Positions 9,061-64,000 of a stretch of 64,000 bases of DNA are shown piece after piece. Made by a program: the position numbers and the translations under genes. This stretch comes from Ostreococcus lucimarinus (taxonomy: Eukaryota), in the NCBI GenBank assembly GCA_000092065.1, contig CP000595.1. One strand, 5' to 3'. Numbering within the stretch: the stretch's first letter is position 1; the number at the start of each line of letters is the position of its first letter. The notes beneath the pieces are model-generated. The model was not told where the DNA came from. It did no database searches and saw only the letters and a list, made by a program, of their open reading frames with translations.

Positions 9061-11910
9061 TTGCTCGCCGTCGCGCTTCTCCGCGCCGCGAGCGTCCCGC
9101 GCCCTCCGTCGCGTCGGCGTCGCCGTCTCCGGCGCGATCCACCGCCTCACCTAAGAAGGTCGACGTCACGGCGTCAAAAAGCGCCGCCTTCGTCGCCCCT
9201 TCGTCGCGCGACGCGCGCGATCGCGGTCGAAACGCTCGAATCGAGCGAAACGCGCGCGATGGCGTTCGACGACGCGTCGCGCGTCGCGCCGCAGCCGCAG
9301 CGCGCCGAGCGCGACGGCGACGACGCTTCGGTCGTCGGTCCGGGACGAAAAGCGCAATCGCTCCAAACGAAGGATTCGTCGAGCGAACGGACGCGAACGG
9401 GCGTCGCGAACCGAGTGAATGGGTACTTTGGCGCGAAGTTTCATCGCCTCGGGCGATTGAGCGCGTCGAGACCTTGGACGGTGATGCTGTGCTCGATGTT
9501 GTTTTGCATCTTGTGCGCCGTCGGCTTGGGGGCGCCGGGATTGAAGAATGAAAAGCGCGGCGATAAGCTTTGGGTGCCGACCGATACGCCGGCGCAGGGG
9601 GATAAGAATTACGTCGATGCGAATTTTGGCTCGGAGACGCGCTTCGCGCAGGTGATTTTACGATCGACGACGAACGGGGCGAACGTGCTCACGCCGACGG
9701 GGTTGGCGGCGCTGGAGAACGTCGCGGCGCGAGTGCGGAACGCGAATATCGCGTGGGAAGGTGCGACGTATACTTATGCGCAACACTGTTACAAAATGGG
9801 GGCGACGTGCTACGAAAAGAGCGTGCTGAACGCGTTTGCGAACGCCACGGCGTACGGGTCGCAGTCGCTAATCGACGCGGCGCTGAGCGCGTCCCCGTTG
9901 ACCAGCGAGAACCCCAACGATGGATCTACGGTGTTGTTGAAGAACGTCGCCGGTGGAATAACCATGACTGGTGCCGTGCCGAGCGCCTCGGCGATTTCTC
10001 TGACGTACTTGTTCAAGAATAACGACGTGCTGAGGAACGGAGATTACGTCGATGAAAAGGGCGACGCGTTTGATAGCGTCGTGCTCGATATTTTCGCCAA
10101 TCCTCCGTCCGGTTTCAGCGCTTCATACGTCACCGAACGATCATTTTCCGACGAATTTGGCAGCACAATTCAAAGTGATTTGCAAAAGCTTCAAATCGCG
10201 CTGTTTTTGATTCTCGCCTACGCCGCGCTCACGCTCAGCAAATGGAACATGGGATGCGTCGGCTCTCGAGTGGGCGTCACTCTCGCGGGTATCGTCTCCA
10301 TCGGCATGGCCATCGCATCTGCGTACGGCATCGGTGCTTATTGTGGTCTCTTCTTCTCGCCGTTGATGAATGTTCTGCCGTTCTTATTGCTCGGCATCGG
10401 CGTCGACGACATGTTTGTCATCGTAAACTCGTACGACAACACGGAGGCGCGCGTCGACCCGGTCGAACGCATGGGGCGGTCTTTGCGAGTCGCCGGGATG
10501 AGCATCACGGTCACATCGGCCACGGATGTCATCGCCTTTCTCATCGGTTCGTCCACGTCGTTGCCAGCGTTGAAGAACTTTTGCTTCTACGCGGCGCTCG
10601 GCATCTTCTTTGACTATCTCTACCAAATCACCTTCTTCACCGCTTTCTTGTCCATCGACGAGCGAAGAAAGAGCGAAAACAAAGCCGACTGCTTCTTTTG
10701 CTTGGACTGCCCTCCCGAGGCGTGCTGCGTGTGCTGTACGCCGAAAAAAATGCCGAAGTCATTGCTGCAAATCGCTTTGGGCGATGGTCTCGGTAAGCAA
10801 CTCGGAAAGAAGCCCGTCAAAATTTTTGTCCTCGCGTTCTTCTCCGCCATCACCGTCGGCGGCATCATCGGTTCGACGAAGATGCAAGTCGATGCGGACG
10901 TGAACAATTTCATCCCAGATGGATCATACTTGAAGAACTGGTTCGCCGACACAGACGCGTACTTTACCGAGTACGGTGACGCGGTCGAGATCTACTCCAA
11001 GAGCACGCTCGATTTGACGACGGAAGATTCCATCTTGCGCGCCGCCACGGCGGCGTTTACGGCGAATCCGTACGTCATCAACGAATCCGTTCGTTCTTGG
11101 GTTGACGACTTTTACACATATCACACCACTACCAATGGCGTGACCGTGACGTCGCTCAACTATATCCCATCGCTCAAGACCTGGCTCAGCACCGCTGCTG
11201 GGTCTCAGTACAAAAACGACGTCGTGTTTGACGACGAGACGTCGCCGACGGCCATCGTCAGCACGCGAATTCACGGCAACCACATAAAGACGGACAAGTC
11301 GAACGTCAACGTGCAGGCGATGGATACGTTGCGCGCCGCGATTAACGCTGTCAGTGGTAACAACGGTCGAATTTTCGCCTTTGGTAGTCAGTGGTTGAAT
11401 TACGAGCAGTACAAGTCGATCACGAGCGAAGCCATCAGGAATATTTCCATCACTCTCGCGGCGTGCTTCGTCATCATCGCCATGCTCGTCATCGAGATTA
11501 AAACCGTCGTGAGCGTGTCCTTGGCGCTGACGATGATTTTTGTCAACATCGTCGGTTACATGCACTTCTGGGGTCTCACCATCGATTCCGTGACCGTCAT
11601 CATGCTCGTCATCGCTCTCGGACTCGCCGTCGATTACTCGGCGCACATCGGTCGCGCGTACTTGGAAAAGACTGGCACCCCGGACGAACGCATCGTTCGC
11701 ACGCTCCAGGACATGGGTGTCGCCGTCTGGAACGGTGCGATGTCCACCTTCATGGCTGTTCTCATCCTCGGCTCCTCCGATTCGTACGTCTTCCAAACCT
11801 TTTTCAAGCAGCTCTTCCTGTGCATCGTCCTCGGCTTGATGCACGGCTTGATCTTCCTTCCGGTGGTGCTCTCCATGTTGCGTCCCGCCGCGTACGCCGA
11901 GGCCACGTGA
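9061..11910 (+). CDS. Patched/Dispatched/NPC1-family RND-type membrane protein with sterol-sensing-domain-like transmembrane bundles
   Basis: 949 aa; two 6-helix transmembrane bundles carrying the RND/Patched GxxxD motifs (LLGIGVDDMFVIVNSY and ALGLAVDYSAHIGRAYLE) separated by large extracytoplasmic loops; Patched-like N-terminus (RVNGYFGAKFHRLGRL…). The start is probably the internal ATG near 9256. Confidence 0.85.
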   Translation: MLAVALLRAASVPRPPSRRRRRLRRDPPPHLRRSTSRRQKAPPSSPLRRATRAIAVETLESSETRAMAFDDASRVAPQPQRAERDGDDASVVGPGRKAQSLQTKDSSSERTRTGVANRVNGYFGAKFHRLGRLSASRPWTVMLCSMLFCILCAVGLGAPGLKNEKRGDKLWVPTDTPAQGDKNYVDANFGSETRFAQVILRSTTNGANVLTPTGLAALENVAARVRNANIAWEGATYTYAQHCYKMGATCYEKSVLNAFANATAYGSQSLIDAALSASPLTSENPNDGSTVLLKNVAGGITMTGAVPSASAISLTYLFKNNDVLRNGDYVDEKGDAFDSVVLDIFANPPSGFSASYVTERSFSDEFGSTIQSDLQKLQIALFLILAYAALTLSKWNMGCVGSRVGVTLAGIVSIGMAIASAYGIGAYCGLFFSPLMNVLPFLLLGIGVDDMFVIVNSYDNTEARVDPVERMGRSLRVAGMSITVTSATDVIAFLIGSSTSLPALKNFCFYAALGIFFDYLYQITFFTAFLSIDERRKSENKADCFFCLDCPPEACCVCCTPKKMPKSLLQIALGDGLGKQLGKKPVKIFVLAFFSAITVGGIIGSTKMQVDADVNNFIPDGSYLKNWFADTDAYFTEYGDAVEIYSKSTLDLTTEDSILRAATAAFTANPYVINESVRSWVDDFYTYHTTTNGVTVTSLNYIPSLKTWLSTAAGSQYKNDVVFDDETSPTAIVSTRIHGNHIKTDKSNVNVQAMDTLRAAINAVSGNNGRIFAFGSQWLNYEQYKSITSEAIRNISITLAACFVIIAMLVIEIKTVVSVSLALTMIFVNIVGYMHFWGLTIDSVTVIMLVIALGLAVDYSAHIGRAYLEKTGTPDERIVRTLQDMGVAVWNGAMSTFMAVLILGSSDSYVFQTFFKQLFLCIVLGLMHGLIFLPVVLSMLRPAAYAEAT

Positions 11911-12022
11911 CCGAGCTCACCGAAATAATCTTATTCTTTCGCATGCTTTCGTGCAATTTGTTCCGTTATCTCCGTGTAAAATCACTCCGACATATAGAAC
12001 GACCTCACCACTCGCGCTCGCT

Positions 12023-23951: not shown

Positions 23952-25172
23952 ATGTCGAGAACGACGCACGTATGTCTCGCGCTCTCACCGCTCGCGGTGC
24001 GATCGCACGGTCGACACCGCGTGCCGACGGTGCATACCGCGCGCTCGCGCGTCGGGACGCCGCGGCTTTGGCTTCGGGACGCGCGACGTCTCGCCTCGCT
24101 CGCATCGCGCGATGAAGACGACGTCGTTCTCATTGAGTCACAGAACGTGAATGATGAACGTGACGAGAGCGCCGCGCGCGTCGCGGCGACGCCGGTACCG
24201 CCGCGGTGGGATGTCGCCGTCAACGCGGAGACGCTCAAAGAAATCGTAAACTTTGGCTTTGAGCGATTTGGATTTGAAGATGACTCGGATGCGTTGAACG
24301 CTTTGGCGCGGGCGTTGAACTCCAACTGCGACCGCGGTTTAGAAACGATGGGTGACGTGGAAACGAACCGACGCGTATGGGGCGCGAACACGACGCGACC
24401 ATACCCGACAAAGTCGATTTGGGATTTTGCGTTCGAGGCGCTCGAGGACGTCACGTTGCGCGTACTCGTAATCAGCGGTGCGTTGTCGCTCGTGTTGGAA
24501 ACGTCCATCGGGGGCGATGATTCAGAGTATAGTTGGGCGAATGGAGCTGCGATACTTCTCGCGGTGTGCATCATCGTCGTCGTGGAGTGCGTGAACAACA
24601 ACGAAAAACAGAGATCGTTTGTCAATCTCAACGCACGAAGCGAACAGACAAACGTCGCGAGCATTTTACGCGGTGGGAATCGTGAGCTTTTGAGGAAGAG
24701 TGAAGTCGTCGTTGGAGACGTCGTGGAGCTGCAAGCGGGAGACGTTGCACCGTGTGATGGCTTAGTGATCGAGAGTGCGGCGTTTTTGGTCGATCAAAGT
24801 CACATTACCGGCGAGAGCGATGATATTGAAAAGAATCGTCAATCGATAATTTTCGCTGGAAGCAAAGTCACGTCTGGACGCGGATCGATCCTGTCGATCG
24901 GCGTCGGTGAGAATTCGTCTAGTGGACAAATTGCAGAGATGATCAATGTCGGTGCCGAAGAGTTCACGCCGCTGCAGTTGCAACTGCAGGCGCTTGCCGT
25001 CAAAATTGGTCGCTGGGGCATCAGCGCCGCATTGGTCGTCGGTTTCATTTTAAGCTTTACGCTCGTATTTGACGCAATTCAAGGGACTGGTCCGCCCATC
25101 GAGGCGCTCGGTTTGGATTTCTTGCATATCGTCATCATCGCCATCACCATCGTCGTCGTATCGGTGCCCGAG
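23952..25172 (+). CDS. plasma-membrane-type Ca2+-transporting P-type ATPase (type IIB), exon 1
   Basis: PMCA-like N-terminus (…ETNRRVWGANTTRPYPTKSIWDFAFEALEDVTLRVLVISGALSLVLE…, TGES motif HITGESDD); the exon ends …VSVPE directly before a GTGCGT donor at 25173. Confidence 0.9.
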
Positions 25173-25482
25173 GTGCGTGGGAAAGCGTTTTTCTTTTTTT
25201 CGTGCTCGAGCGCCGGTGGTGTTCTGTGATGATTGAGTAAATTTCTCTGAATTCGTTGACGAAACTACTCTGTCTGCCGACTTCCCTCTGAGAACGCCAC
25301 CGAAAAGCTTTGAGCGCGCGACTTCCATTCATTTCTGTGATGATTGAGTAAAGTTCTCTGAATTCATTGACGAAACTACTCTGTCTGCCGACTTCCCTCT
25401 GAGATTTGAATGGTCGTGACGCGGATTGACTTTTTCACGCGCAACCTCGACTGACAATACCTCGTTTCCTTTCGCAACACAG
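25173..25482 (+). other. spliceosomal intron (GT…AG, 310 nt, phase 0) of the Ca-ATPase gene; contains an internal 109-bp tandem duplication
   Basis: Donor gag|GTGCGT at 25173, a polypyrimidine tract, and acceptor tttcgcaacacAG| at 25482. Splicing restores the invariant P-type ATPase PEGLPLAVT motif (…VPE|GLPLAVTLALA…). The unspliced frame runs into a stop at 25229. Confidence 0.85.
25224..25404. repeat. about 1.7 copies of a 109-bp direct repeat inside the intron (two near-identical 72-bp cores)
   Basis: ttctgtgatgattgagtaaa[t/g]ttctctgaattc[g/a]ttgacgaaactactctgtctgccgacttccctctgaga occurs at 25224–25295 and 25333–25404, about 97% identical. Confidence 0.85.
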
Positions 25483-27438
25483 GGCTTACCACTCGCCGTG
25501 ACGCTCGCTCTGGCATTTTCCGTCAGGCGCATGCTCGAGTTGTCCATGCTCGTCCGCGTCCTAGGCTCCGCCGAAACCACAGGCGAAGTCACGGCTTTGC
25601 TCATCGACAAGACTGGGACGGTGACTGAAAACGACCAACGCGTTAATCGCGCGTGGATCGCGGGTGTAGATATCGGACCTCTAACGAGCAAAAGCGTGAC
25701 GTGGGCGAGTGAAATTGCAAACAAGACGCGAAACGAGCCAACGCTCGATCCTCGCGTGGTGAAACTCCTGTCGATTTTGCTCGCAATGAACTCGACCATA
25801 ACCTACGATGCCAAAGGGCAAATTTTGCGAGGAGCAAAGGCGGAAATCGCGCTGTTACGATTCGTTAACTCAATGAACAACGACGAATTGTTCGTCGCTA
25901 CGATTCGTAAGTACTTCCCTTTGGTCAAGCTCTTTCCATTCAACACTTCCAGAAAGCGCATGTGCACGCTCTTCACACTTCGCGACGGCATCAACGACGA
26001 CGAAATGGGAGACGTGATCGTTCGTGCGGTCACGAAGGGCGCATCTCAAGACATGTTGAACTTGTGTTCATCTGTCATGGACGAAAACGGCGCCCATCAT
26101 CCACTCGACGCCGCTACGAAGGATCAGCTGTCGAAAAAGTTTCTCGAATGGCAAGATGACGCGGAAAGGGTATTACTCGTCGCGTATAAGGACATCGAAC
26201 GCGATCTCATCACAACGCATGAAGCGACGAATATTTGCAGTCGAATGAGCGCCAGCGACGCTGAATCCGACCTCACGCTCGTCGCAGCAATCGGGATGTG
26301 CGACCCTTTGAGGCCAGAATCCACGAAGAGCGTGCGTTTATGTCGCCGCTCTGGCGTCGCAGTGAAGATGGTCACTGGGGATTCGTTGTCCACCGCTACC
26401 GCGGTGGCAAGGAGATGCGGAATACTCGATGAAAAAGACATGAGCACCGAAGCAACGATGACGGGTGAAGCGTTTCGAGAAGCAATTCGTGGAGAAGAGG
26501 GTCAAGAAATCGATCAATCGAAACTCGATGCCATTTGGCCGAATTTGCGAGTGCTCGCTCGCGCGTCGCCACAAGACAAATTCATCCTTACCGATGGTAT
26601 ACGCAACACAAAGCTATCGGGACGAAAAGAAGTTGTAGGGGTTGTAGGCGACGGCACAAACGACGCGCCCGCACTTCGACGCGCCAATGTCGGTTTCGCT
26701 TTAGGCTCGGGGACGGAGTGCGCCAGAGATGCAAGCGATATTGTTCTTCTGCAGGACGATTTTTCTTCCGTCGTCGACGCCATTCGTTACGGCAGGAACG
26801 TGTTTGAATCAATCGAAAAGTTTATCACGTTCCAACTGACGGCGAATTGTACGACAATCATTCTGTCCACCGGCTGCGCACTTGTGTATGCGAAGAGCCC
26901 GCTGAACGCCATCGAGCTATTGTTTGTCAATCTTGTCATCGATTCGTTGGCAAGCTTAGCGCTCGCGACGGATGAGCCGAGCGACGACGTGATGCGACAG
27001 CCTCCGTCAGATGCGAGCAACCTCATCACGTCAACCATGCGGCTCAATATCTTCACCCAAGTTTCGTATCAGCTCGCCGTCATGGCGTACTTGCTCAACG
27101 AATTCGGCCCGGAAGACACCCAAATCTACTGTTGCTTCGTCTTGCTTCAGCTCGCGAATCAAATCAACTGTCGCAAAGTTACCACGGAGGTCAACGTTTT
27201 CAAGGGTGCGACGAAGAACAAGCTCTTCGTGAGCCTCTTGACGAGCGAGATTTTGCTCCATGTCGCCATCGTGCAAGCGGGCGGCGCGGTGTTTCACACC
27301 TCTCCGCTCAATGCGGGAGAGTGGCTGCGATGCACCGCGTTCGCGCTCGGGGCGATTCCTCTGCGCGCATTGTTCGTGACATTTTTTGTTTCACTCTTCG
27401 CCGCGTTTCGGGAAGAGGACGCGTTGCACCATCACTAG
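25483..27438 (+). CDS. plasma-membrane-type Ca2+-transporting P-type ATPase, exon 2
   Basis: PEGLPLAVT (TM4), phosphorylation motif IDKTGTVTEN, VTGDSLSTA (TGD), GDGTNDAPAL hinge, and C-terminal transmembrane helices. Confidence 0.9.
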   Translation, partial: GLPLAVTLALAFSVRRMLELSMLVRVLGSAETTGEVTALLIDKTGTVTENDQRVNRAWIAGVDIGPLTSKSVTWASEIANKTRNEPTLDPRVVKLLSILLAMNSTITYDAKGQILRGAKAEIALLRFVNSMNNDELFVATIRKYFPLVKLFPFNTSRKRMCTLFTLRDGINDDEMGDVIVRAVTKGASQDMLNLCSSVMDENGAHHPLDAATKDQLSKKFLEWQDDAERVLLVAYKDIERDLITTHEATNICSRMSASDAESDLTLVAAIGMCDPLRPESTKSVRLCRRSGVAVKMVTGDSLSTATAVARRCGILDEKDMSTEATMTGEAFREAIRGEEGQEIDQSKLDAIWPNLRVLARASPQDKFILTDGIRNTKLSGRKEVVGVVGDGTNDAPALRRANVGFALGSGTECARDASDIVLLQDDFSSVVDAIRYGRNVFESIEKFITFQLTANCTTIILSTGCALVYAKSPLNAIELLFVNLVIDSLASLALATDEPSDDVMRQPPSDASNLITSTMRLNIFTQVSYQLAVMAYLLNEFGPEDTQIYCCFVLLQLANQINCRKVTTEVNVFKGATKNKLFVSLLTSEILLHVAIVQAGGAVFHTSPLNAGEWLRCTAFALGAIPLRALFVTFFVSLFAAFREEDALHHH

Positions 27439-27462
27439 AATTTTTAGATTACATCAGAACTT

Positions 27463-28785
27463 TCACGCCGCGTCGGCGAACACAGGTAACGCACAGCGCT
27501 TCCAATGATCGTCCCACGTTTGCTCTCCCCATTTCGCCGCGCCGTGTTTCAACGCTCTGAGCGTGAGGCGTTCGTCGCCACGGAGAAGTTTCGCGAACAT
27601 CGCCGCGAGTTCGGTGGCGTCGGCAAAGAGCACGCCGTTGACGCCCTCTTGCACGAGCTCTCCGATGACAGCGTACCGCATCGCGGCGACGGGTAACGAT
27701 GCCCCAAACATATCCACAATTTTCATCGGTAAATCTAAACCGCTGCTCGAGGTGTGCAGGGAGACGCCCAGGTGCGCGTTCGCGAGCGCGCGCGGATAGT
27801 CAGCGGCGTCGAGCCAGACGGTTCGAAACGCCACGTGCTCGAGCGCGAGTTCGTTAATCTTCTTCTCGTACATCGTCTTTCGTGGGCCTTGACCGGTGAT
27901 AATTATGACGATGTCAGGGTACGACTTTGACGCATGATCGCCCTTCGCGCGCTTGCGCGCGTCGTACGCGACGGCGGCGTCAAGCAAAACGCCAAAGTCT
28001 TCATCCGGCGTCCACGACGTCGAACTCACGATGAACCTCGGCTTATTCTTCGTCATATTCTCGTGCGTGCCCCGCAAAAACCGATCGAGCGCGTCCTCAC
28101 TCCGCGCGACGGGCGAAGCCTCCAGCGCCGAGCGCGCGGGTTCGCTTCTCCAAAATTCCAACGGCGTCGTCGCCTCGCGCGCCGCCTCTCGAAATCGCTC
28201 CGCCGCGCGGTCTTCCACGACGCGCGCGCCCTCAATCTTCCATTCTTTCTCCAAAAAGTTTCCCATCGCCTTCGTCACGCACACGTGCGCGTCTCCCCAC
28301 ATCTTTCCCTGCGTCCGTTCGTACCATTTCAACATTCGCGTCGTCGCGCTCGCGTCGCCGCGCTTCATCCCGAACAGCGTGTACGCGAAATTATGCCAGT
28401 CCACCACCAACCGCGTCCGTCGCGCGCGACACACGATTCCGCACACCAAAAACGTCGGCACGCACGGCGGGTTCTGTATCAGCATCTCTTCGCACCGCTG
28501 CATCGTCATCAGGATCCAAAACAAGTGCGCGCACTGCGCCGCGACGCGCGTCCCGAGCGCGAGCGCGAGCGGGACGCGCGTCAACCACCGCCACCGACAT
28601 CCCACGACGTAACGCATCGTCACCGCGTCTTCGCGAGACAGCGCATCGATCGGAGGCGTGCCCGAGTAACACACGACGTCGACGGCGCGATCCGCGTCGC
28701 GCGCGAGCGACAGCGCGTGGTATTGCATTCGAGGCGAACGACCAAAGTCGCCCAAAACCACGAGCGCGGTGCGTCGTTTCGTCAT
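27463..28785 (-). CDS. ALG1: chitobiosyldiphosphodolichol beta-1,4-mannosyltransferase (ALG1-like, GT1 fold)
   Basis: The N-terminal ALG1 hallmark …ALVVLGDFGRSPRMQYHALSLA… plus a glycosyltransferase group-1 C-terminal domain. The track ORF extends to 29142 through low-complexity sequence; the ATG at 28785 (MTKRRTALVV…) gives a typical 441-aa ALG1. Confidence 0.85.
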   Translation of the reverse strand: MTKRRTALVVLGDFGRSPRMQYHALSLARDADRAVDVVCYSGTPPIDALSREDAVTMRYVVGCRWRWLTRVPLALALGTRVAAQCAHLFWILMTMQRCEEMLIQNPPCVPTFLVCGIVCRARRTRLVVDWHNFAYTLFGMKRGDASATTRMLKWYERTQGKMWGDAHVCVTKAMGNFLEKEWKIEGARVVEDRAAERFREAAREATTPLEFWRSEPARSALEASPVARSEDALDRFLRGTHENMTKNKPRFIVSSTSWTPDEDFGVLLDAAVAYDARKRAKGDHASKSYPDIVIIITGQGPRKTMYEKKINELALEHVAFRTVWLDAADYPRALANAHLGVSLHTSSSGLDLPMKIVDMFGASLPVAAMRYAVIGELVQEGVNGVLFADATELAAMFAKLLRGDERLTLRALKHGAAKWGEQTWDDHWKRCALPVFADAA

Positions 28786-50615: not shown

Positions 50616-53600
50616 ATGTCGACGATCGATCCGACGGCGCGCCTGGACGCGCGCGGGACGCACGCGAGAGCGGATGAGGTGCGAGCGCTGGCGAAGGATT
50701 TGACCGAGACGGCGACGCGGACGCGAGGGGCGAGCGCGGACGCGGACGCGGACGCGGTGAATCGCGCGGCGAGGGCGTGCGGGACGTTCGCGGCGCTGGG
50801 ATTGGTGGACGCCGAGGACGTCGTGAGGGACGGGAAGAGAGGCGGGGCGGTGGACGCGGCGGCGCGCGGCGCGGGGGACGTGACGGCGATACTGGAGGAG
50901 CACGAGACGACGTTGGTGGCGGTGTTGGACGCGTTGCCCGAGTTTTTAAACGCGGCGGCGCGCGCGCTCGCGATGCGATTGCGCAGTCACGCGCCCGCGG
51001 GATCGTCGACGGTGGCGGAGGTGGAGCGTGTGTTGAAGATTCGCGAATTGCGCAGCGCGTTTGCGTTTAACAAGGTGATTGCGAAGAAGTTTCACGAGTT
51101 TATGCGCGTGCATTTCGACGCCGACTCCCCCGCGGGCGTGGCGGTGGCCAAGCTCGGGTGGGCGCTTTACGTGTGCGCCAAGTGCGAGTCTTTACCGACG
51201 TTTCCAGATTTGTACTCGTGCTACCACTTGCTCGTCGCCGTGGAGGCGTTTTTGTTAATCAACGCCCCGCGAGAGTCGTTGAGAACGTCGCTGAAGAATA
51301 TGGTGAGCATGACGGCCAAGGACGAGACGACGAAGCTTCCAGATCCGCTTGCCAGTCTCAGTTTGGCGTCGAAAGCCAAGAAGGATACCGTGCGCGCGAT
51401 GTCAGACGCCGTGCTCAAGGTGGTGAAAGCGTCGTTCCCGGAGGCTACGATGGATGCGTCGAAACACTTTGACGACGTCGCGCCGAGCGACATGTGCGCA
51501 CAAGGCGTCTTCGACGGCGAACGGGACGTGTCTGCATCCGTCGTCGAGCGTTACTCTCGCGTCGCGTCGGAAACGTTTGGCCGTCTCGCCGTTGACGAGA
51601 CGTTGTACTTGTACACGGAGATGACGAGCGCAGAGTCGCGAGGAAGGAAAATCATCGGCGATCTCGCCGATTGCAAGACGACAACGACGTACGGATCGAT
51701 GGCCACGCCCGCTCGTCGCAAGCGCGTGGCGCCTTTCTCGCCAATCAGACCGAAGAAAATTCCCATACACGGCGTCCCGCCGAGTCCGATGCACTCGTTG
51801 CGCGGGATCATGGCGAGCGGCGTTGGCGGCGTCGCCGCGACGCCGATTAGTCAAGCCATGGCGAGCGCATCGTGGTTACAAGACGTCGTGTGTGGCAGCT
51901 CAGATCTCGAGACGAAAACTGCAGAGTTACAACGCTTCGTTCCGGACAATCCCGAAATCGTGCAAGCGTTGAAGAAAAAAGTCACAAACTTTGGGCAAAG
52001 AATAGGACAAGCGATCCGCGAGGACGCGCTGGTGACGACTATGCGCACGGACATCAGTCCGCACAGCACGGTGATGGATGAGTTAGTCAAACAGCGAACA
52101 TCCGAGGTGTCGCACGTCTTCTTTTACTTTTTGAATCGCATTTTGAAGGACGAACTCGAGCGAATCGCCGGGGACAAGAAGGATGTCAACTTTACCACCT
52201 TGCTCGCGAGCGACCGCTTCACAAAGTCGTTGGTGACGTGCTGCATGGAAGTCGTCGTTTCCACGTACAAGACGTCCACGTTGGCGTTTCCGGCGACGAC
52301 ACACTTGATGGGAATTCACCCGTTCGATTTAGCGACCATCATCGAACCCTTTGTGCGCGCAGACATGAGCATGCCGCGCGAGATTCAGCGACACTTCAAC
52401 TCGCTCGAGGAAAAGACGCTCGAGCGCCTGGCGTGGTGCAAGGGATCGACGTTGTTTGAGTTTTTGAAAACGTTTCACGAGAGCGCGCGTGGCAGTGGTG
52501 GAGCGTCGACGGCATTGCCGGGACGAACGGCGCCTAGGTCACCGCAAGCGCCCAAACGCGTGAGCACACCCGTCTTGAACGTGGCGTCTGTGGCGGAGGT
52601 CGCGGCGATTGGCGGCACCGAGCGCGAAGGCTCGTCGGGCGATGACGCAGACCTCGTCATGGCGCAGTGTCAATCGCCAGTGCGACGCGCACCGACGAGC
52701 GCGTTTTCAGCGTTTTCGTCTCCTTTGCGTGGTGCGACGACGCCGCGTCGGCGGGTGTCTCGAGGCGAACCGTTGCCCGTGCGTTTCGCCGCCGTTCGAA
52801 ATCACACCGTCGAACAGCCGAGTGGGTGCGACGTGTGTGCGTTCAAGGCGCTCCGAATGTTCTTTGCCAAGGTTATGCATCTTGCGGCGAGACGTTTAGG
52901 GGACTTGGCGTCGAGATTAAACTTGTCAACGGACGTCACGCGCGACATTTACGCATTGATTGAACACGTCGTGTACGAACAGACTAATCTCGTGTACAAC
53001 AGGCACATCGATCAAATCATCTTGGTCTCGGTCTACGGTGTGTGCAAGGCGAGCGCTGGGATTTCCTCGAACTCGCTGCAGTTCAAGGATATCATATACC
53101 AATACTCCAAGCAGCCGCAATCGAGCGAAGAGATATTCTGGGCCGTGGTGTTGGAGCAAAACGACCCCGAGCTCGAAGTCGTCAATCGGGGCGACATCAT
53201 TTCCTTTTACAACAAGGTCTTCGTCGGGCGGGTTAAGGAGTTTTTGTTGACGCTCCGCGAGCGCCCTGCGCGAGATACGACCAATCTAGATACCGATGGT
53301 GGCGAGCAAGGAAATACCGTGAGCGTAGACGACGCGCTTCCGTTTGGGTTGTCGTCGCCTCGGCGGCGTTTACCCATCGACAACCAAAACATTTACGTGT
53401 CGCCAATGCGTCCCGAACGCGTTGCCAGCATGCTCCACGAAGGCGCACCGCCAACGCCACGCACGCGAAGCCTGTTTGCCACTATCGGTGAGAGCGTGTA
53501 CGCATATACATCACCGTCAAGTGACTTTGAAGCAATCAATCGCAAGCTACTGATGGACAAGCCGAAACCGCCGAAGGGACGCTTCGCCCCGAACGTCCCG

Positions 53601-53624
53601 AAATTCGGTGAACACGATCGTTGA
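50616..53624 (+). CDS. RBR: retinoblastoma-related pocket protein (RBR/MAT3-like)
   Basis: Rb N-domain and pocket A/B boxes; pocket B …HIDQIILVSVYGVCKASAGISSNSLQFKDIIYQYSKQPQSSEEIFWAVVL… matches the canonical …HLDQIMMCSMYGICKV…LKFK.II..YK… block. A 1003-aa protein from the ATG at 50616 (track ORF from 50109 through the repeat leader). Confidence 0.9.
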   Translation: MSTIDPTARLDARGTHARADEVRALAKDLTETATRTRGASADADADAVNRAARACGTFAALGLVDAEDVVRDGKRGGAVDAAARGAGDVTAILEEHETTLVAVLDALPEFLNAAARALAMRLRSHAPAGSSTVAEVERVLKIRELRSAFAFNKVIAKKFHEFMRVHFDADSPAGVAVAKLGWALYVCAKCESLPTFPDLYSCYHLLVAVEAFLLINAPRESLRTSLKNMVSMTAKDETTKLPDPLASLSLASKAKKDTVRAMSDAVLKVVKASFPEATMDASKHFDDVAPSDMCAQGVFDGERDVSASVVERYSRVASETFGRLAVDETLYLYTEMTSAESRGRKIIGDLADCKTTTTYGSMATPARRKRVAPFSPIRPKKIPIHGVPPSPMHSLRGIMASGVGGVAATPISQAMASASWLQDVVCGSSDLETKTAELQRFVPDNPEIVQALKKKVTNFGQRIGQAIREDALVTTMRTDISPHSTVMDELVKQRTSEVSHVFFYFLNRILKDELERIAGDKKDVNFTTLLASDRFTKSLVTCCMEVVVSTYKTSTLAFPATTHLMGIHPFDLATIIEPFVRADMSMPREIQRHFNSLEEKTLERLAWCKGSTLFEFLKTFHESARGSGGASTALPGRTAPRSPQAPKRVSTPVLNVASVAEVAAIGGTEREGSSGDDADLVMAQCQSPVRRAPTSAFSAFSSPLRGATTPRRRVSRGEPLPVRFAAVRNHTVEQPSGCDVCAFKALRMFFAKVMHLAARRLGDLASRLNLSTDVTRDIYALIEHVVYEQTNLVYNRHIDQIILVSVYGVCKASAGISSNSLQFKDIIYQYSKQPQSSEEIFWAVVLEQNDPELEVVNRGDIISFYNKVFVGRVKEFLLTLRERPARDTTNLDTDGGEQGNTVSVDDALPFGLSSPRRRLPIDNQNIYVSPMRPERVASMLHEGAPPTPRTRSLFATIGESVYAYTSPSSDFEAINRKLLMDKPKPPKGRFAPNVPKFGEHDR

Positions 53625-53810
53625 GGTTTTGTCTCTTGAATCGGAGTTGTTTTAGAACTGTACAATACACGTCTTCCGTAAACACAATCGCCCTCGAGTC
53701 TTCGCTCTCGAGCGCTTCGTCTCGTCCTCGTGTGACTGTTCACGTTCCTCGGGCGAGGAGAAGTGTCACTCGCCACTTCACCGCGCGCGAGCAGACGCAG
53801 AACGAACACC

Positions 53811-54461
53811 ATGAAGCTTCAAAAAATCGCATTGACGACGTGCGCGACGCTCTTGATGGCCACGAGCGCTATCGGCGCCGAGATGCGTGGTACGACGGCT
53901 TCGAGCGCGCGGCGACTGCTGCAACAAGCAGAGACCAACGACGCCGACGCTGATTCTCAAGCGCGCATCGATCGCATCAATTGGCTCGGTCGCGCTGTGG
54001 TAGAAAATGGCGCGTTCCAGTTTTGGACCAAGAACGCCTCTGGGTACTACACCGCCGTCAACGACTACTATGTCAAATCTTTCGAGCTCGAATCCGACGC
54101 CGACGTCGTCGGCAAGACGGACGTCCAACTGATCGTGCTTGTCGCCGGCGATCGCACGATCGAGGACTTTGAAGACGCCAAACCCGATGAAACACTCGAC
54201 TCCATCGCTTCTGCGTACCGCGAACACGATATGATGGTACAGGAAACCGGAAAAGCGACTCGATTCAACGAGCGCGTGATCGCGGACGACCGCGTGTACG
54301 ACGTCGTCGCCATCAAAGCTCCATTCGAAGGCGGGACGGTCGGGATCGCTATCCCGCGCAACGCCGATGACGACATCAACGTCGTCGTCACGAGCGAATC
54401 CGACGACGACGAATCCGACGACGACGAATCCGACGACGACGAATCCGACGACGACGACTAG
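53811..54461 (+). CDS. secreted hypothetical protein (signal peptide, possible PAS/Cache-like fold) ending in an (ESDDD)4 acidic repeat
   Basis: The ATG at 53811 gives MKLQKIALTTCATLLMATSAIGA, a signal-peptide-like sequence; the C-terminus is encoded by 4 copies of a 15-bp repeat (gaatccgacgacgac) at 54403–54461. Confidence 0.5.
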   Translation: MKLQKIALTTCATLLMATSAIGAEMRGTTASSARRLLQQAETNDADADSQARIDRINWLGRAVVENGAFQFWTKNASGYYTAVNDYYVKSFELESDADVVGKTDVQLIVLVAGDRTIEDFEDAKPDETLDSIASAYREHDMMVQETGKATRFNERVIADDRVYDVVAIKAPFEGGTVGIAIPRNADDDINVVVTSESDDDESDDDESDDDESDDDD

Positions 54462-55410: not shown

Positions 55411-57576
55411 TTACGCTTCTTCTTCTGCAGCCTCGGGTTCGACGTTTTCGTCCGCAGCAGTCTTCGAGGGCGTCGCCTTGAGCACCGAGGGCGGCGCGTC
55501 GACGTCCATGGGATCGTCGTTCATCTCCAACTCTTGGAGCGGCGTCTCTTCTCGGGCATCCAACTCGACGGGTGCGGCGACGGTGGCCGGTTCTTCGACG
55601 ACCTGCGACGTCGTCGTCGTGGTCGTGGTCGCTTCGGCAGCGTCGTGTACTCTAGTGAAATCCGTGTTCAATTCGACGACGTCCTCGAGCTCGCTCACGT
55701 CGAGCGGCGCCTCTTCGACGACTCGCTCTTCTTCAATGGACCTCGCACCCTCCTCTTCCGCCTCGGCGGCGGCCTCCGCCGCGAGCTCGGCCGCTAATTC
55801 ACGCTCTACTTCCGCCACGGCTTCATCCGCTTCGCGCTCGGCCTGACGTTCCACTTCGTCGTCATCCAATTCTTCCGTGGCGACGACGACCTCCGCCTCG
55901 ATGACATCCTTACTAGCTTGCGCCTCGTCCTCCGCGATTTCTTCTGGCGAGCGGTTGGCGGCGATGACGTTGCTCATGATATTCGCCACCGTTGACGCGA
56001 CGAACGCTTCGTTCGCGGCTCGCTCTTCAGCCTCCTTGATAGCCTTTGGCTTGCGTCCGCGTTTCTTTTGCTTCTTTGCGCCGCCGCGAAGAGCGTCTTC
56101 GTCGACGTCTTCTTCGCGCATCAAAGGCACACCGCGACCAGGGGCAGGAGCAATGCTCGTCGACAGCGGATTGATGCCGTACCTCTCCGCCCACGACGCT
56201 GGTGGCGGCGGCGGCATCAAGCCGTAACGCACGCCGCGACGATCCAAAGGCGAGGGGTCGGGAAGACTGCCGCCGAGATCGCGCAGCGCCTCCGCCGGGC
56301 GAAGTCGCGACACGCGGAACGGTTGCGAAGGACCACCCGGGGTCTTACGCGGCCAAATCGGGTTTGCCGTGCGTCGTTCGATCTGCGTGACCGTGGGCAA
56401 GGAGTTGTGGACTCGTTGGTACACCTTGGTCTCTCCGCGCCAATACTCGAGTGGCTTGGATCGTTGACGCGTCGATCGTCGCACGCCACCCTCGGTTGCT
56501 TGTAAACCGGCCAAGGCGAGCGACTTGCGGCGCTCCATCTCGGCGCGAAGGCGCTTGTGCGGCACACCTGCGGTGGTGCGCTTGCGCGGCGCCGGTGGTT
56601 CGGGAAATCCGTCGTCGTCGTACGCCGCGACGTCGTCGTAGCCGAGATCCATATCCTCCTCGCCGTAAAAGTCCGCGAGCGGCGGTTCGTCGCGCTGCGA
56701 ATTGGCGAAGTGTGACACGCCCTGCATCTCTTCCGGCAACCCCTCGGGGTATTCGGCGTGCATCATCATCGCCAACGCCTCGGCCGCGTTCGGCGTACCC
56801 GCGCTCGACAGCCGTCCCGCCTTTGACTTGGACCCGTTCGGCGTCGCCGCCGCGTCGTGCAAAATGTGCGTCGACGGCCTGAACATCGGTCGCGGGCCGT
56901 CCATCGAACCGGTGTTCACCGTAAACGGATTCACATTCGACCCACCGCTGCCGCTACCGCTCCCCGCGCTCGCGTGCGAATCCTCTCCAATCTCCACGAT
57001 GCTCACGCCGTTCGGCGCCGAAAACGCCTCCCCGCCGCTCCCGTTCGACACGTCCATATCGCTCGAACTTTTCTGCTTCATGATCCCCGGAATGTTCACC
57101 CTGATCACGAACGGTCGCGCGCGCACCTCCCGCCCGGTTCCACGTCGCAACCGCAGCCGTTCCCGTCGACTCGCTCGCGGCGCGTACGCGCCCGCCGGCT
57201 TGCCTCCCGCCGCCGCCGCCGCCGCCGCCGCCGCGCGCGCCGCGCGCAACTGCGCCAACCGCGTCGTCGTGCCTACCGCGCCATCGCCCCGCGCGAGCGT
57301 TTTCGTCAGTCCTCGTTCCTCGCGCTCGTCCCGCCCCGTCGCGTCCGTCGCATCGTTCTCCGCACCATCCTTCGCGCGCGTCTCGCCTCGCGCCGTTTTT
57401 AAATCAACGGTCGGCGCCACCTCGCCCCGGTCATCCATCGTCTTGAACGACACCCGTCGCGGCCGCGACGCGCGTCGCGCGCGCGCGTCGTCGACGTCGG
57501 CGTCGAAACGCTTTTCGCGCGTTCCCGCGTCGTCGCCGCGGGCGTTCGCGTCGCGCGGCGCGAGCGGCGTCGACAT
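55411..57576 (-). CDS. acidic, low-complexity nuclear protein carrying a canonical CENP-C motif (candidate CENP-C/Mif2-like centromere protein)
   Basis: Residues about 365–381 [19 protein letters not shown] (nt 56434–56484) match the CENP-C motif (R-[RK]-S-x-R-x(3-4)-P-x(2)-YW). The protein also has long Asp/Glu-rich tracts, basic patches and an Ala/Glu coiled C-terminal region; no cupin domain is evident. Confidence 0.6.
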
Positions 57577-57890: not shown

Positions 57891-60800
57891 TTATTCGCGC
57901 GCGGTCGAGGACGAAGCGCCGCCGAAGCCGAAAAATTTGCCCAGACGGGACGCCGAGGAGGCGGCTTCGGCGCGCTCGCGATCGGCTCGGCTGGGAGCGC
58001 GCGCGAACGCGCGAGGTCGGGCGACGCTTTCGTCGTCGACGACGGTCGTGGTGACCTTGCGGACTCGAGCGATGCGCTCGCGCTCGGGCTTTGGCGGCGG
58101 TGGCGAAGATGGGGTGAAAGCGCGTGGTTTGGCGATGGGCGCGTCGTCGTCGACGCGCCTCTTGGTCACCTTGCGAACGCGAGCGACGCGTTGGCGTTGC
58201 GCCTTCTCAATTTTGGGTTTGGTGAACGCCGGAGCGGACGGGTAGTCCTCATCGTCGATGTCATCGTCGAGTGCTTCGTCGGGGAAGCACTCGGCGCAGT
58301 AGACGTTGCCGTCTGGACCGGGCATGACGTCCTCCGGTTCCATCTCACGCGAGCAGTTCGGACACTCGAAGGGCGCCGGCGCCTTGGACGAAGCTTGTCT
58401 TGGCGCTTCGTCCATCTCAGGTTCTTCCTCGGGTACGCACCGCGGGCAGTAATCCTTCCCGCCTGGACCCGTGATGATATCGTTCAACGTACACGGTGCG
58501 TCGCAATTCGGACACGTGGGGATTGAGCGTTTTCGCTGTGGCGACCAACATTTCGGACAGAATTGCCCACCGTCGACCTTGATGACGTCTTCGGGCTCGC
58601 ACGGCGTCTCGCAGTTCGGGCACACGAACGGCTCCGGCGCGCAACGCGGGCAGTGTTTCTTGCCGTCGACGTCGCTGATCGCGACTTCTTCGGGCTCGCA
58701 CGGCGTCTCGCAGTTCGGGCACACGAACGGCTCCGGCGCGCAACGCGGGCAGTGTTTCTTGCCGTCGACGTCGCTGATCGCGACTTCTTCGGGCTCGCAC
58801 GGCGTCTCGCAGTTCGGGCACACGAACGGCTCCGGCGCGCAACGCGGGCAGTGTTTCTTGCCGTCGACGTCGCTGATCGCGACTTCTTCGGGCTCGCACG
58901 GCGTCTCGCAGTTCGGGCACACGAACGGCTCCGGCGCGCAACGCGGGCAGTGTTTCTTGCCGTCGACGTCGCTGATCGCGACTTCTTCGGGCTCGCACGG
59001 CGTCTCGCAGTTCGGGCACACGAACGGCTCCGGCGCGCAACGCGGGCAGTGTTTCTTGCCGTCGACGTCGCTGATCGCGACTTCTTCGGGCTCGCACGGC
59101 GTCTCGCAGTTCGGGCACACGAACGGCTCCGGCGCGCAACGCGGGCAGTGTTTCTTGCCGTCGACGTCGCTGATCGCGACTTCTTCGGGCTCGCACGGCG
59201 TCTCGCAGTTCGGGCACACGAACGGCTCCGGCGCGCAACGCGGGCAGTGTTTCTTGCCGTCGACGTCGCTGATCGCGACTTCTTCGGGCTCGCACGGCGT
59301 CTCGCAGTTCGGGCACACGAACGGCTCGTCTTCCGGTACATCCTCCCGCAAGCACTCGTTGCAATATTCCAAATCATCCGGACCGATGACGATTTTATTC
59401 GGCGGCTCTACGGTGATTCCGCAATTTGGACAGTTGACATCCTTTTTGCGAGGACAATTTGGCGCTTCATGATCCGTCATACCGCAGATGGAGCAGCGCG
59501 AATCCGGCATGACGAGGTTCTTGCGCGCCAACTCATCGCTCGGCTCTTCGAGCACCGCATGCACACTCGGCGACTCCGCGAGCGGTTTTCTCTCTTGTGC
59601 TTGTTTGAATTGTGCTTGAAGCGCTTCCGATGGCTTTACGGTTGGATTCGCGCGGAAGCAGAAATCGCCAAACGCGAGCATAAACTTCTTCGCGTCCAGC
59701 CGGCTCCCTTGGCAGCACAAGTACCCGTCAGGTTTTTCATCGATGGCGTGCACCCAGCCATGTCGAGCGCCGTGGTACACCCAATCAGGAGTCGACGTTG
59801 AGAAATCGCTGTAGGTTCGGAAGACCAATTCACCAAACTTGTTCAATGGACTCTCGGCACCGACGGCCCACATTGTTGCAGCCTTGAACTCCATCACTCC
59901 CATGCCATCCTTGTCGGTGAAAGCCTTGTACACAGTGCTCACAGCGCGGATGTCCTCGTCAGACGATTTGCCTTGCTTCTTCATAGCCGTCGCAAATCTC
60001 GCTTGTGCTTCGTATGCTTCGACGATATGATGCGCCTTAGGGCGAAGTATGCGTTCAATCAGCCAGCGCGTTGCGCGAGCGACGCCTCTATCTGTCAATG
60101 GCACGCGATGACCGTAGATGATCCAAGCCATGAAGACGAGGGAAGTGAGGAATTCATCCAGGTGCATTCCCCAAGCGTGCTTGATACGCAGCTCCAACCT
60201 CGGACCTTCGCTCGGACATAGCGATCCTTCAACTGAGCCAGTCTCTCGATCGAGTGTGAGACACTTGGCGAGAAGCTCGGGCGCCTTGACGGTATCGAAT
60301 ACCGATCGAACGACGGCTGAGAGCTGATTGTACTGCGAGTTCGGTAGTTTGTCCTCAATCTTGCAACTCGAGATGAGGTACATGAACTGACGGTAAGACA
60401 TGAGCAAGTGATCATCCGCACCGACGCGCGTTTCGTTGTCACTCGGACCAGACGGAATCGACGCGTATGTTTTGAACAAACCCTCCAAAAATGTCCAGTG
60501 ATTGCGAATCTCGCTCCAGACGTAATAGTTGCCATCTTCGGGCTCGAAAGAAGTCAGCACATGGTTCGGTTTGCTGATACCCTTGCGAGTAAGCGGAGCG
60601 GCATCTTGGATGAGCTCCTTACCATTGTTGCGGTAACGCAGAATCGTTCGTTCAAGAGGTTTTGAATTGCTGTCCGCAAGCATTCTGCGCAAGTCGAGCA
60701 CCGTCATTTCCGGATTTTCGTGAACAAGATTAGATTGGAGCACCGGTTGCGCCAACACTGGCCCTTCTTCAATATCCGGTCGAGCGTACATTCGTTCATC

Positions 60801-63800
60801 TTCATCGGGATCCCTTGCCTCTTCTGGGTCATCTTGAAGAATCAACCACGCTGTCGTCTTGGCCAAATTACCGCGGCGGTTCTCGAGCTGCACCTCCGCC
60901 TTCCATTGAAGATTCTCGAGCTTCACTGTGTTGTGAGTGTCGAGCAGCTTGCCTTTGTGCGAGATATCAAATTTACTTCCAGTGACAGCAGGAAGCTCGT
61001 CTTCACCTGCGAACTCGCCCCGATCGCGCATGTCTCGCAATTCTGTGGCGAGCTTGGTGTGAACGCTTGAGACTTCCTCCTTGAGACGAACGGGGACGTA
61101 CACGTTCCATCCTAAATCTCTCGATCGATCCGGGTCTTCTTCCTGAATGATGATGGTTTCTCTCGTACGGAAGTGTCGTTCTCGCTCTTGTTTAATTCGC
61201 GACACCTCTTCGTCGTCTTGCTGGATGACGACGTACAAGTTGCCGTGACGAGCGCAGCGCTCTCCGGGCTCGCATTCGCAGAGGCAACAGAAATCGTCGT
61301 AGACGTCGTCGAGGTCAAGGTGCCACGGCAACACGTCACCGTCTTCATCCTGCGCCTCTGCTTTCGCTTTTGCGAGACTTTCATCGTAAGCATCCCAATC
61401 AGGGTGAATATCACCAAAGTAACCCTGGAACCGAACAAAGTGCGTGCGTCCACTGACTTCGGATGTTTGGAAAAAGAGCTCCTCTTGGTCCAAGTCTGCC
61501 GCGTCGTTCACATCCGTTTGAAAGGCTCTTCGAACGTTGTCAGCTTGTTGAAGTACCTCATACTCAGCGAGTTGCTTCTCTTCGTCCTCCTTCTCTTTCT
61601 CTTGCGTAGCGTGCGACTTCGCACGGGCGAGAGTGGAGTCTCGAAGTAAAAAGCGTTCGACCGACGGGTTGTGAGCGCCTGAGACGCCGCGTAAATCTTT
61701 TTGAGCCTGTCTGTAAAACTTGCGATAGAAGTTGTATCTCTTTTGAATCATCTTATTCTCGATGAAGAGTTGCACTTGTCGATTCATGTCCCGATTGTCC
61801 ACCGCCGCGGCGCGAATCAGGCTTTGACGCACCGGGCGCGAGAGCATCTTGTAGAAAGATTTGGCTCTGTCGTCATGGGTACCCAGAATGGTCTCCACAG
61901 TCTTGTGTCGCCAGAGCGAGCGAATTCCTCGAGCGAATTCCATTCGCAGGTGCATGTCGAAATTACCACTGAAATACAATCCTTGATCACCTTCCGCGGA
62001 CTCAAGCTGAAGAATCGCGCCCGCACTGGGGTTGAGCAGCGAAAGTGTCGGTTTCCATTCGACCCACTTGCGTTCGCGTAGCCACTGCGATGAGCGGTGC
62101 TCACTCACGACAATACTGATGACACGAGCGATAAAATTCTTGTAGGCCCGTCGAAGGTGCCAGTCAGCTCTCTTGAACCATTCCGCGCTGCTATAGGCTT
62201 CGTAAAAAATCCCTGCGCAGAAAACAAAGACAGCCACCGCAATGGTTTGCCACACGGCATTTCTGGCGTTGTCCTTTGTCCTTTGGTTGATGATGTACGA
62301 CACCGGCGCTATTGAAATGACTGAAAGCATCAGTACGAGCACCATGGCGAGCAAATGTAAGCCAAGATACCGTTTTGCTTCGCTCGTTTTAAAAGGTCGC
62401 AAAATGACGGTCGCGAACGACACAGATATTACGAGTAGAGCGGTGAGCGCCTGCACGACACCGTTGCCATTTCTGAGCTCGTAGCCTAGAAGTTGAATCA
62501 AGCACAACGCCAATATTCGTGCCATCTCGTTCACACGATACCAAACGTAGTCATCTGTGAACTGGAACGTTGCAAATCCAATCAAATCTCGTTTCCACAG
62601 CTTTTCCCATCCTCCCATGGCGTACTTTATTACCCAATACATGATGGCAAAGAAACCGATCGGGTACAGAAGCAGGGCGATCAAGGCGAGCGGGAACAGC
62701 TGTTGCCATTTCGTGCTTCCAGTCGTCGATGAGAAATATCCGAATCGCAAGTTCGGCTGCGCACGAATGTACCCAAACTTGTCCGTCACTGAACGATGAA
62801 ATATGAAAAAGTCAAATGTCGCGATGATGACGGCGACATAAGTAATTTGAATGACGTTCAAAATACTTCGAAGCATTAAAACCCATCGCCTTTGACCGTT
62901 GCGAACCACCTCGACACTCGGCTGCGTTTTGATGTAAAATTTACCCCAAATGTAGGCGTACAGCTGTGCGATGCCGTACATCAGCGCAAGTCCAATCGCC
63001 GGCATGGCCATTAATGAGTTCCAGCGTGCCACAAAATCGTATTCAGTCAAACATTCGAGGCCGATGACTTCGGGGTTGAGCTGCAGTATGTAGCATAGCT
63101 GTAGCAGCAAAGTCAAGCCGGGATAATCGTTCCAGCCAAGATTGTATCTCCCAATAATCCCAACTTCTTGCAGAAACACAACGAGCGATAATATACGACA
63201 ATAGACGATGTATCGAAAGCTCTGCTCGTCGATGAGCCAGGGCATCAAAATCGCCGAAAGCATCACCAAGCCGACGCCCGCACCATACAGCGTGTGCCCC
63301 AAAGCAGATCCGCACTTCAAACACTGACCATTGAGACGGTAGTAGCCCGTAACACACGTCTCACACGCGTCGTGAACATATCCCTCTGCGCACTGCACGG
63401 CATCCGCACTCGATCCGCCCGCGGCGATGGCGTCCACTTGCGCCGAGCCAGCGATGCCTTTCACACCGGGACACGCCTTATGGGGGAAGCACTGTCGCAT
63501 GGAGATGGGTTGCTTGTACGAGCGCGTTTCAGGAGACACGACGTAGAAACCAGGCTGCGGATAAGGCACCGTGAGATTCGTCTCAGCACAATACGTCCAA
63601 CGTTCGGGCGCTCCGTAGGAGTCGCTGTACTCTGGGCAAGGAAAGCAATATCCCGGCACGCCGTACCAACCGATGTTGCAGAAACATTGGTCCCTTGACG
63701 TTGCGCCTTGAACAGAGGTACTCCCAGCGGGACATGAAATGCAAGTTTCAAGTCCCGGGGTGTCGGAATAATACCCATTGCTGCATCGGGTACAGAAGCC

Positions 63801-63986
63801 TCGTTGCACGGTTCCGCCAGCCATACCCACCGGGCAGGCACGACAGGTGTGCGAGTTGATGGCGTCGGTGACTTGACCAAGCGGACAAATCGTGCACGTG
63901 CCGTAAGTCTTTGCGTTTGACGCATCACCAACGGCGCTTGCTGACTCTGTTGTGTAACCTAGCGCACAACCAACATGAATATTCAA
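57891..63986 (-). CDS. giant receptor-like multi-pass membrane protein (N-terminus beyond window end): extracellular GCC2/GCC3 (ephrin-receptor-like) Cys repeats, about 10 transmembrane segments, long cytoplasmic region, C-terminal tandem zinc-ribbon array
   Basis: 2031-aa uninterrupted frame, stop at 57891. N-terminal modules C..C..G.Y….C..CP.G…C.C (…[39 protein letters not shown]…), a hydrophobic multi-helix block around 62100–63300, and 7 perfect plus 1 diverged 33-aa CPNC…CPRC repeats; further CxxC…CxxC ribbons flank the array. Confidence 0.8.
58585..59324. repeat. tandem array of 7 essentially identical 99-bp units (plus a diverged 8th) inside the coding sequence of the giant gene
   Basis: The unit …cttcttcgggctcgcacggcgtctcgcagttcgggcacacgaacggctccggcgcgcaacgcgggcagtgtttcttgccgtcgacgtcgctgatcgcga… repeats head-to-tail with no visible mismatches. 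It encodes [33 protein letters not shown] x7 on the minus strand. Confidence 0.9.
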
Positions 63987-64000
63987 TGTTGCCTCCGCAC

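Follow-up and report, generated by a model that had tools for sequence, protein, structure and literature searches.

The window analyzed here is a stretch of 64,000 nucleotides of contig CP000595.1 from Ostreococcus lucimarinus (GenBank assembly GCA_000092065.1), and the gene under study, a putative centromere protein gene of the CENP-C (Mif2) family, is located on its minus strand. The gene corresponds to an open reading frame (ORF) encoding 721 amino acids (aa), the end coordinate of which takes in the stop codon (Table 1). An earlier note, made from the sequence alone, had singled out this ORF as a CENP-C/Mif2-like candidate on the strength of a near-ideal CENP-C motif and described its product as an acidic, low-complexity protein with basic patches, a coiled acidic tail and no visible C-terminal cupin domain. 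The ORF is found, with its ATG start, exactly where the note had placed it, and the amino acid composition (E+D 18.2%, R+K 13.6%, A 15%) fits the description, as do a basic patch at aa 501-511 and an acidic helical tail formed by predicted helices at aa 572-620. Three Tara Oceans contigs, independent of one another, carry the same gene call (721 aa, single exon), with 99% identity. An exact look-up of the 721-aa protein in the protein collection returned no match, and versions at 99% identity are present there.

A loose regular expression for the CENP-C motif, R[RK][ST]xRx(3,4)Pxx[YF]W, was scanned over the six-frame translation of the whole 64-kb window and produced a single match, at aa 366-379 of the 721-aa protein, compared to a mean of 0.01 matches in shuffled windows and a chance level of about 2e-6 per protein of the same composition. 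The near-ideal motif that had been reported is thus confirmed; the 19-aa peptide named in the earlier note corresponds to aa 364-382 (window positions 56431-56487). No second motif of the 'central region' kind was detected in the 721-aa protein by the regular expression scan. When the protein was compared to all PDB chains using phmmer, the four best matches were CENP-C motif peptides from nucleosome complexes, namely those of rat (4X23, chain 4x23_V, E 0.003), chicken (7BXT, chain 7bxt_K, and 7BY0, chain 7by0_K) and yeast Mif2 (6QLD, chain 6qld_C). Conservation was measured over 16 Mamiellophyceae sequences of the Ostreococcus, Bathycoccus and Micromonas types. Among these orthologues, R366, S368, R370, R372 and the entire segment P375-E382 are invariant, and the motif is kept in all orthologues in which the region around it is intact. 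The conservation peak of the protein extends well beyond the motif, covering aa 341-424, with smoothed identity of 0.88-0.91 at aa 341-357, 366-395 and 405-424, compared to 0.1-0.6 outside the peak.

Homologues of the protein were identified in O. tauri (annotated as 'hypothetical protein', 66% identity), in Bathycoccus-type algae (35%) and also in Micromonas-type algae, whereas land-plant homologues were reached via the motif region. In the orthologues, at 35-70% identity, the frame is maintained from end to end. The similarity to plant CENP-C exceeds the 20-aa motif: BLASTP aligns the protein with Arabidopsis CENP-C at 65% identity over 51 aa (E 9e-20) and with Chlamydomonas CenpC at 56% over 73 aa (E 3e-22), and the common pattern starts with RRKSLAxAG-x(5-8) upstream of the motif and includes YxRVHxSLPTV downstream. 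Of the profile searches suggested in the earlier note, the one with the motif block, run against 1.8 billion representative proteins, retrieved 523 proteins at E<=1e-3, whereas the Pfam search detected no cupin. Among the best 150 of the 523 matches, most are proteins of 600-850 aa in which the match is located at the extreme C-terminus. Four of the five land-plant clusters that were looked up carry the source name 'Centromere protein C' (Lupinus, Pyrus, Vicia and Flemingia), and all Mamiellophyceae matches of the profile fall in the same CENP-C family. The plant matches bear the precomputed family label PF28563.1. When only the 106-aa block was used to look for homologues, 21 candidates were obtained, fewer than in the exhaustive profile search, and Pfam comparison of 14 homologues gave no informative match.

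The identity of the gene turned out to be on record already. Residues 47-721 exactly match the 675-aa sequence 'Ostreococcus_lucimarinus_OLUC004298_CenpC' in the file CenpC.fa of Dataset EV1 from a 90-species comparative analysis of kinetochore proteins (van Hooff et al., 2017, EMBO Rep 18:1559; PMC5579357), and because of this identity the gene has to be considered as already assigned as the CENP-C of the species. The identity also shows that the window derives from O. lucimarinus, most likely from strain CCE9901, which is the strain represented in the dataset. No Ostreococcus sequence other than OLUC004298 is listed in CenpC.fa, which also contains the CENP-Cs of Bathycoccus, Micromonas RCC299, Chlamydomonas, Coccomyxa and Chlorella. 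The gene was accordingly catalogued in 2017 and its identity is not new; a literature search for CENP-C together with Ostreococcus found nothing relevant in main texts, the assignment being present in the supplementary FASTA file only. The exact match to this entry, the PDB matches of the motif, the profile search and the conservation peak all bear out the candidate of the earlier note, and we conclude that the ORF very probably encodes the CENP-C (Mif2) orthologue of O. lucimarinus, the only one listed for the species in the curated set, and that its product is an inner-kinetochore scaffold of the type found in plants and green algae, disordered for the most part.

Table 1. Features of the CENP-C locus and a neighboring gene in the 64,000-nucleotide window.
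Feature	Protein positions (aa)	Window coordinates	Strand	Basis or remarks
Assigned CENP-C coding sequence, complete	1-721	55411..57576	-	ATG start, 721 aa plus stop, single exon; ORF list, Tara calls, identity with van Hooff et al., 2017
RRVSF	40-44	57445..57459	-	conserved short motif; candidate RVxF-type PP1 docking or Mis12-complex binding site
Met47, published start codon	47	57436..57438	-	OLUC004298 begins MDDRGEV, aa 47 of the ORF
Conserved N-terminal block	144-168	57073..57147	-	R154, F156, V160, P163, I165 invariant or nearly so
Extended green-lineage CENP-C block	340-427	56296..56559	-	conservation peak of the protein; BLASTP to Arabidopsis and Chlamydomonas
CENP-C motif, Arg anchors and Tyr-Trp pair	364-386	56419..56487	-	phmmer against PDB; regular expression; invariant residues
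Arg/Lys cluster, degenerate AT-hook	501-511	56044..56076	-	R506, G507 invariant, R508 nearly so
C-terminal helical region including acidic helix	511-620	55717..56046	-	AlphaFold2 helices 511-541, 544-564, 572-620
Retinoblastoma-family protein		50679-53624	+	RB_A 3.7e-50, RB_B 2.1e-37, DUF3452, sub-threshold Rb_C; two genes downstream of CENP-C

Several observations weigh against this assignment. The whole 721-aa protein has no Pfam match at E<=10, and the cupin domain of CENP-C (CENP-C_C, PF11699) is among the families not found at this threshold; because Pfam gives no match, the assignment rests on a short motif together with about 50-70 flanking residues. Nothing outside a block of about 90 aa matches animal or fungal CENP-C in the Pfam and PDB sequence searches, no recognizable counterpart of the animal/fungal Mis12-binding N-terminus could be shown, and the AlphaFold2 model contains no beta-barrel and past aa 430 consists of helices and disorder.

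The absence of the cupin is real. In a positive control, the last 223 aa of human CENP-C matched CENP-C_C (PF11699) at 1.2e-30 and Cupin_2 at 2e-7, and in the same run no cupin match was obtained for three land-plant CENP-Cs, the Arabidopsis C-terminus, or the Bathycoccus and Micromonas proteins. The AlphaFold2 model, derived from the 16-sequence alignment and likewise suggested in the earlier note, is mostly of low confidence (mean predicted local distance difference test score, pLDDT, of 49) and includes only four strands of 4-5 residues and no barrel. A truncated gene with the cupin on a downstream exon was considered and rejected: a convergent gene on the plus strand ends 52 bp past the CENP-C stop codon (55411), so that an additional 3' exon would not fit, and the orthologues are collinear. 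According to one published description, 'most animal and fungal' CENP-Cs possess the cupin (PMC4359364), and the C-termini of plant CENP-Cs show no significant similarity to those of animals and fungi apart from the motif (Talbert et al., 2004; PMC549713). Because the plant and green-algal CENP-Cs that were scanned also have no cupin, the missing domain does not lower the assignment of the Ostreococcus protein: the cupin is not a defining feature of green-lineage CENP-C, and the cupin-less architecture is the norm in Viridiplantae. For the same reason, the alternatives offered in the earlier note, a truncated CENP-C or reuse of the motif in a different protein, did not hold up.

One other family, KNL2/M18BP1, is known to possess a CENP-C-like motif (PMC9210943), and the protein might conceivably be a CenH3-loading factor of this type, brought to centromeres by a CENPC-k motif, rather than a kinetochore scaffold. 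In plants and in vertebrates other than mammals, KNL2 proteins bind CenH3 nucleosomes through such a motif (PMC9210943); in alpha-KNL2/M18BP1, the arginine-rich ...PLxYW motif that targets CenH3 nucleosomes resembles the one described here, and the KNL2 motif of Amborella does align to the 721-aa protein. However, this alignment is confined to 22 aa (45% identity, E 0.002) and is much weaker than those with the CENP-Cs of Arabidopsis and Chlamydomonas reported above, whereas the flanking RRKSLAxAG and YxRVHxSLPTV patterns are specific to CENP-C. Moreover, the SANTA domain that defines KNL2, and is encoded by the KNL2 genes of all plant clades (PMC9210943), is absent from the protein in the Pfam search (no matches at E<=10). 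With no SANTA domain and only a weak motif match, the KNL2 identity was rejected as very improbable.

Peptides that place an arginine anchor on the nucleosome acidic patch are found in many chromatin proteins, and the remainder of the 721-aa protein is of low complexity, without a match to animal or fungal CENP-C beyond the block of about 90 aa, as would be expected if an unrelated chromatin or nuclear protein without a kinetochore role had acquired a peptide resembling the CENP-C motif. Such an origin appears highly unlikely to us given that the similarity spans the CenH3-specific Tyr-Trp part along with the 50-70 flanking residues common to plant and Chlamydomonas CENP-C, that one such gene is listed for O. 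lucimarinus in the van Hooff dataset, and that Mamiellophyceae and land plants share it as one conserved family. The earlier note had allowed for another, unambiguous CENP-C gene in this genome combined with loss of the motif among orthologues of the present one; no other is listed, and the orthologues retain the motif. A chance motif in non-coding DNA or a spurious ORF has to be considered as well because GC-rich DNA contains many long spurious ORFs, several of which overlap the locus in other frames, but the expectation for the regular expression is only 0.01 per window, the orthologues keep the frame over their full length, and identical calls were made on independent metagenome contigs. 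This explanation, which is rejected by the cross-genus protein conservation and the shuffling test, has a negligible probability.

The protein can be compared with the closest known members of the family. OLUC004298 is the same gene, identical over aa 47-721, and differs only in that the published model starts at Met47 and so does not include the RRVSF sequence discussed below. Land-plant CENP-Cs (Arabidopsis thaliana, maize CENPC) have in common with the O. lucimarinus protein the motif with its flanks (RKSLAxAG upstream and YGRxHxSLxTV downstream, within the 51-aa region of 65% identity), the lack of a cupin/Mif2-homology region, and the status of CENP-C as the main retained protein of the CCAN (constitutive centromere-associated network). 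In contrast, the motif in land plants is located within about 60-90 aa of the C-terminus, whereas in O. lucimarinus it is followed by about 340 residues that comprise the Arg/Lys cluster, three predicted helices and the acidic tail, and the N-terminal motif of land-plant CENP-C is DPLxxYSGLSLFPRT as opposed to RRVSF. The CenpC proteins of Chlamydomonas, Coccomyxa and Chlorella resemble the O. lucimarinus protein around the motif (over the 73 aa given above for Chlamydomonas), including a downstream P(N/E)PxWPR sequence, but their tails are either short or of another kind past the motif, and they contain no RRVSF. Human CENP-C and Saccharomyces cerevisiae Mif2 are likewise disordered scaffolds, with a near-identical nucleosome-binding motif in the C-terminal half, and Mif2 additionally has an Arg/Lys cluster or AT-hook-like element downstream of the motif; unlike these, the O. 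lucimarinus protein has no C-terminal cupin and shows no similarity to them outside the motif.

By analogy with CENP-C of other organisms, a role for the O. lucimarinus protein in the kinetochore can be proposed. A structural review distinguishes two modes in which CENP-C motifs engage the face of the nucleosome (PMC7475651). The motif of the O. lucimarinus protein would dock on the CenH3 nucleosome face, with the arginines of RRSTRQR reaching the acidic patch of H2A-H2B and Tyr378-Trp379 packing on the hydrophobic C-terminal tail of CenH3. The residues concerned, R366/R367/R370 and Y378/W379, are all present and invariant, and the CenH3 of O. lucimarinus, listed as CenpA by van Hooff et al., has a hydrophobic C-terminal extension, ...RIRGPIYGVAAY, with the tail GPIYGVAAY. 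DNA contact is probable for the Arg/Lys cluster next to the motif, and the N-terminal part, in which RRVSF and GTGR...RPFVIRV are the candidate conserved motifs, would be expected to recruit the Mis12 complex and, via that complex, KNL1 and NDC80. Ostreococcus entries in the van Hooff dataset include CenpA, CenpC, CenpS, Mis12, Dsn1, Nnf1, Nsl1, Knl1, Ndc80, Nuf2, Spc24 and Spc25, whereas the files for CenpH/I/K/L/M/N/O/P/Q/R/T/U/W contain none. Because no CCAN subunit other than CENP-S is listed for this genome, CENP-C is probably the only bridge from CenH3 chromatin to the microtubule-binding outer kinetochore (KMN network) in O. lucimarinus. The gene thus confirms a plant-type minimal inner kinetochore in Ostreococcus, consisting of CenH3 and a cupin-less CENP-C, with other CCAN components except CENP-S undetected. 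This composition was already on record in the 2017 comparative dataset, and the present identification is of little importance beyond annotation. We found no centromere maps for these tiny genomes in the literature; epitope-tagged CENP-C in the transformable O. tauri would provide a direct handle for mapping centromeres by chromatin immunoprecipitation.

The region downstream of the motif contains two elements that are conserved to some extent. In the Arg/Lys cluster, Bathycoccus (KKRGRPRK) and some of the Ostreococcus orthologues have GRP, the canonical core of an AT-hook. In yeast Mif2, an AT hook and Arg/Lys clusters adjoining the motif bind centromere DNA (PMC5710141). By comparison with Mif2, the cluster of the O. 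lucimarinus protein is likely to be involved in DNA contact and/or to function as a nuclear localization signal. The three predicted helices that follow reach a block pLDDT of up to 91, are partly conserved in Ostreococcus and Bathycoccus, and stand where animal and fungal CENP-Cs have the cupin. The cluster and the helices together may form a DNA-reading or self-association module.

The only element identified here that might be new is RRVSF, a conserved island in the otherwise divergent N-terminus of CENP-C, which, as judged from its distribution, is specific to Mamiellophyceae. Full-length homologues of the Ostreococcus, Bathycoccus and Micromonas types carry this sequence, whereas almost no plant-type sequences do; the Ostreococcus models that do not contain it have shorter N-termini. 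RRVSF is present in 30 of the 56 sequences in which the motif is located far from the C-terminus, most of these 56 being of the Mamiellophyceae type, but in only 7 of the 135 sequences whose motif is close to the C-terminus, including five that are alga-type or C-terminally cut fragments and two that are plant-type. In the 90-species dataset, the sequence is found 38 times in Knl1.fa, where it represents the PP1-docking site, and once, apparently by chance, in NAG, whereas in CenpC.fa it is found in Bathycoccus and Micromonas only. The KNL1 protein of O. lucimarinus itself begins with MGRRVSFADP, and the N-terminus of human CENP-C contains KNGYRRRFCRPS. We found no report of an RVxF/PP1-docking motif in a CENP-C in the literature. 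Judging from its sequence, RRVSF of CENP-C could be a PP1 dock, a part of the Mis12-binding site, or a phosphosite for a basophilic (Aurora-type) kinase.

These observations also bear on the start of the gene. The ORF described here and the Tara gene calls start 46 codons upstream of the published Met47 and thereby include RRVSF. Because the conserved RRVSF lies upstream, Met47 of the published O. lucimarinus model is probably an internal methionine, and the ORF supplies a corrected N-terminus that is 46 residues longer. For both RRVSF and the C-terminal extension, the evidence covers conservation and clade-specificity, and the functions are proposed only. That the two are hitherto undescribed modules of Mamiellophyceae CENP-C, with RRVSF docking PP1 at the inner kinetochore and a helical extension of about 110 residues replacing the cupin, is a tentative idea that we consider more doubtful than probable.

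The second segment of the N-terminal part that is conserved in Mamiellophyceae, aa 144-168, may be an ancient CENP-C motif of Viridiplantae. Inspection by eye, with neither an alignment nor a score, shows strings of the type G-[ST]-G-R...F-x-[IL] in the CenpC proteins of Coccomyxa, Chlorella and Chlamydomonas, and the segment can be likened to RRPGLDRKRxxFSL in the N-termini of land-plant CENP-Cs.

Some additional observations concern the vicinity of the CENP-C gene. The ORF at 57891-63986 on the minus strand contains a 99-bp tandem repeat (58584-59327, 7.5 copies, 99% identity) that encodes approximately eight 33-aa CxxC...CxxC modules close to the C-terminus of a giant protein, for which the gene call on one Tara contig gives 3048 aa and which shows weak matches to Big_9, Cadherin_4 and Ephrin_rec_like. 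Because the copies are near-identical, recent expansion or concerted evolution of the repeat is suggested. One metagenome gene call from ENA (P0019, 744 aa) is a chimeric or frameshifted model in which the Cys-repeat C-terminus of this giant neighbor is joined to the N-terminal part of CENP-C, and for this reason it is unusable as a homologue. On the other side of the CENP-C gene, the plus-strand ORF at 53763-54461 encodes a 232-aa protein without a Pfam match that has an N-terminal hydrophobic segment and an acidic (DDDES)n tail encoded by a 15-bp tandem repeat (54390-54457, 4.5 copies, 98% identity). Finally, the G+C content of the window dips to 0.52-0.55, compared to a background of about 0.63, at positions 10001-12000, 24001-28000 and 60001-64000.

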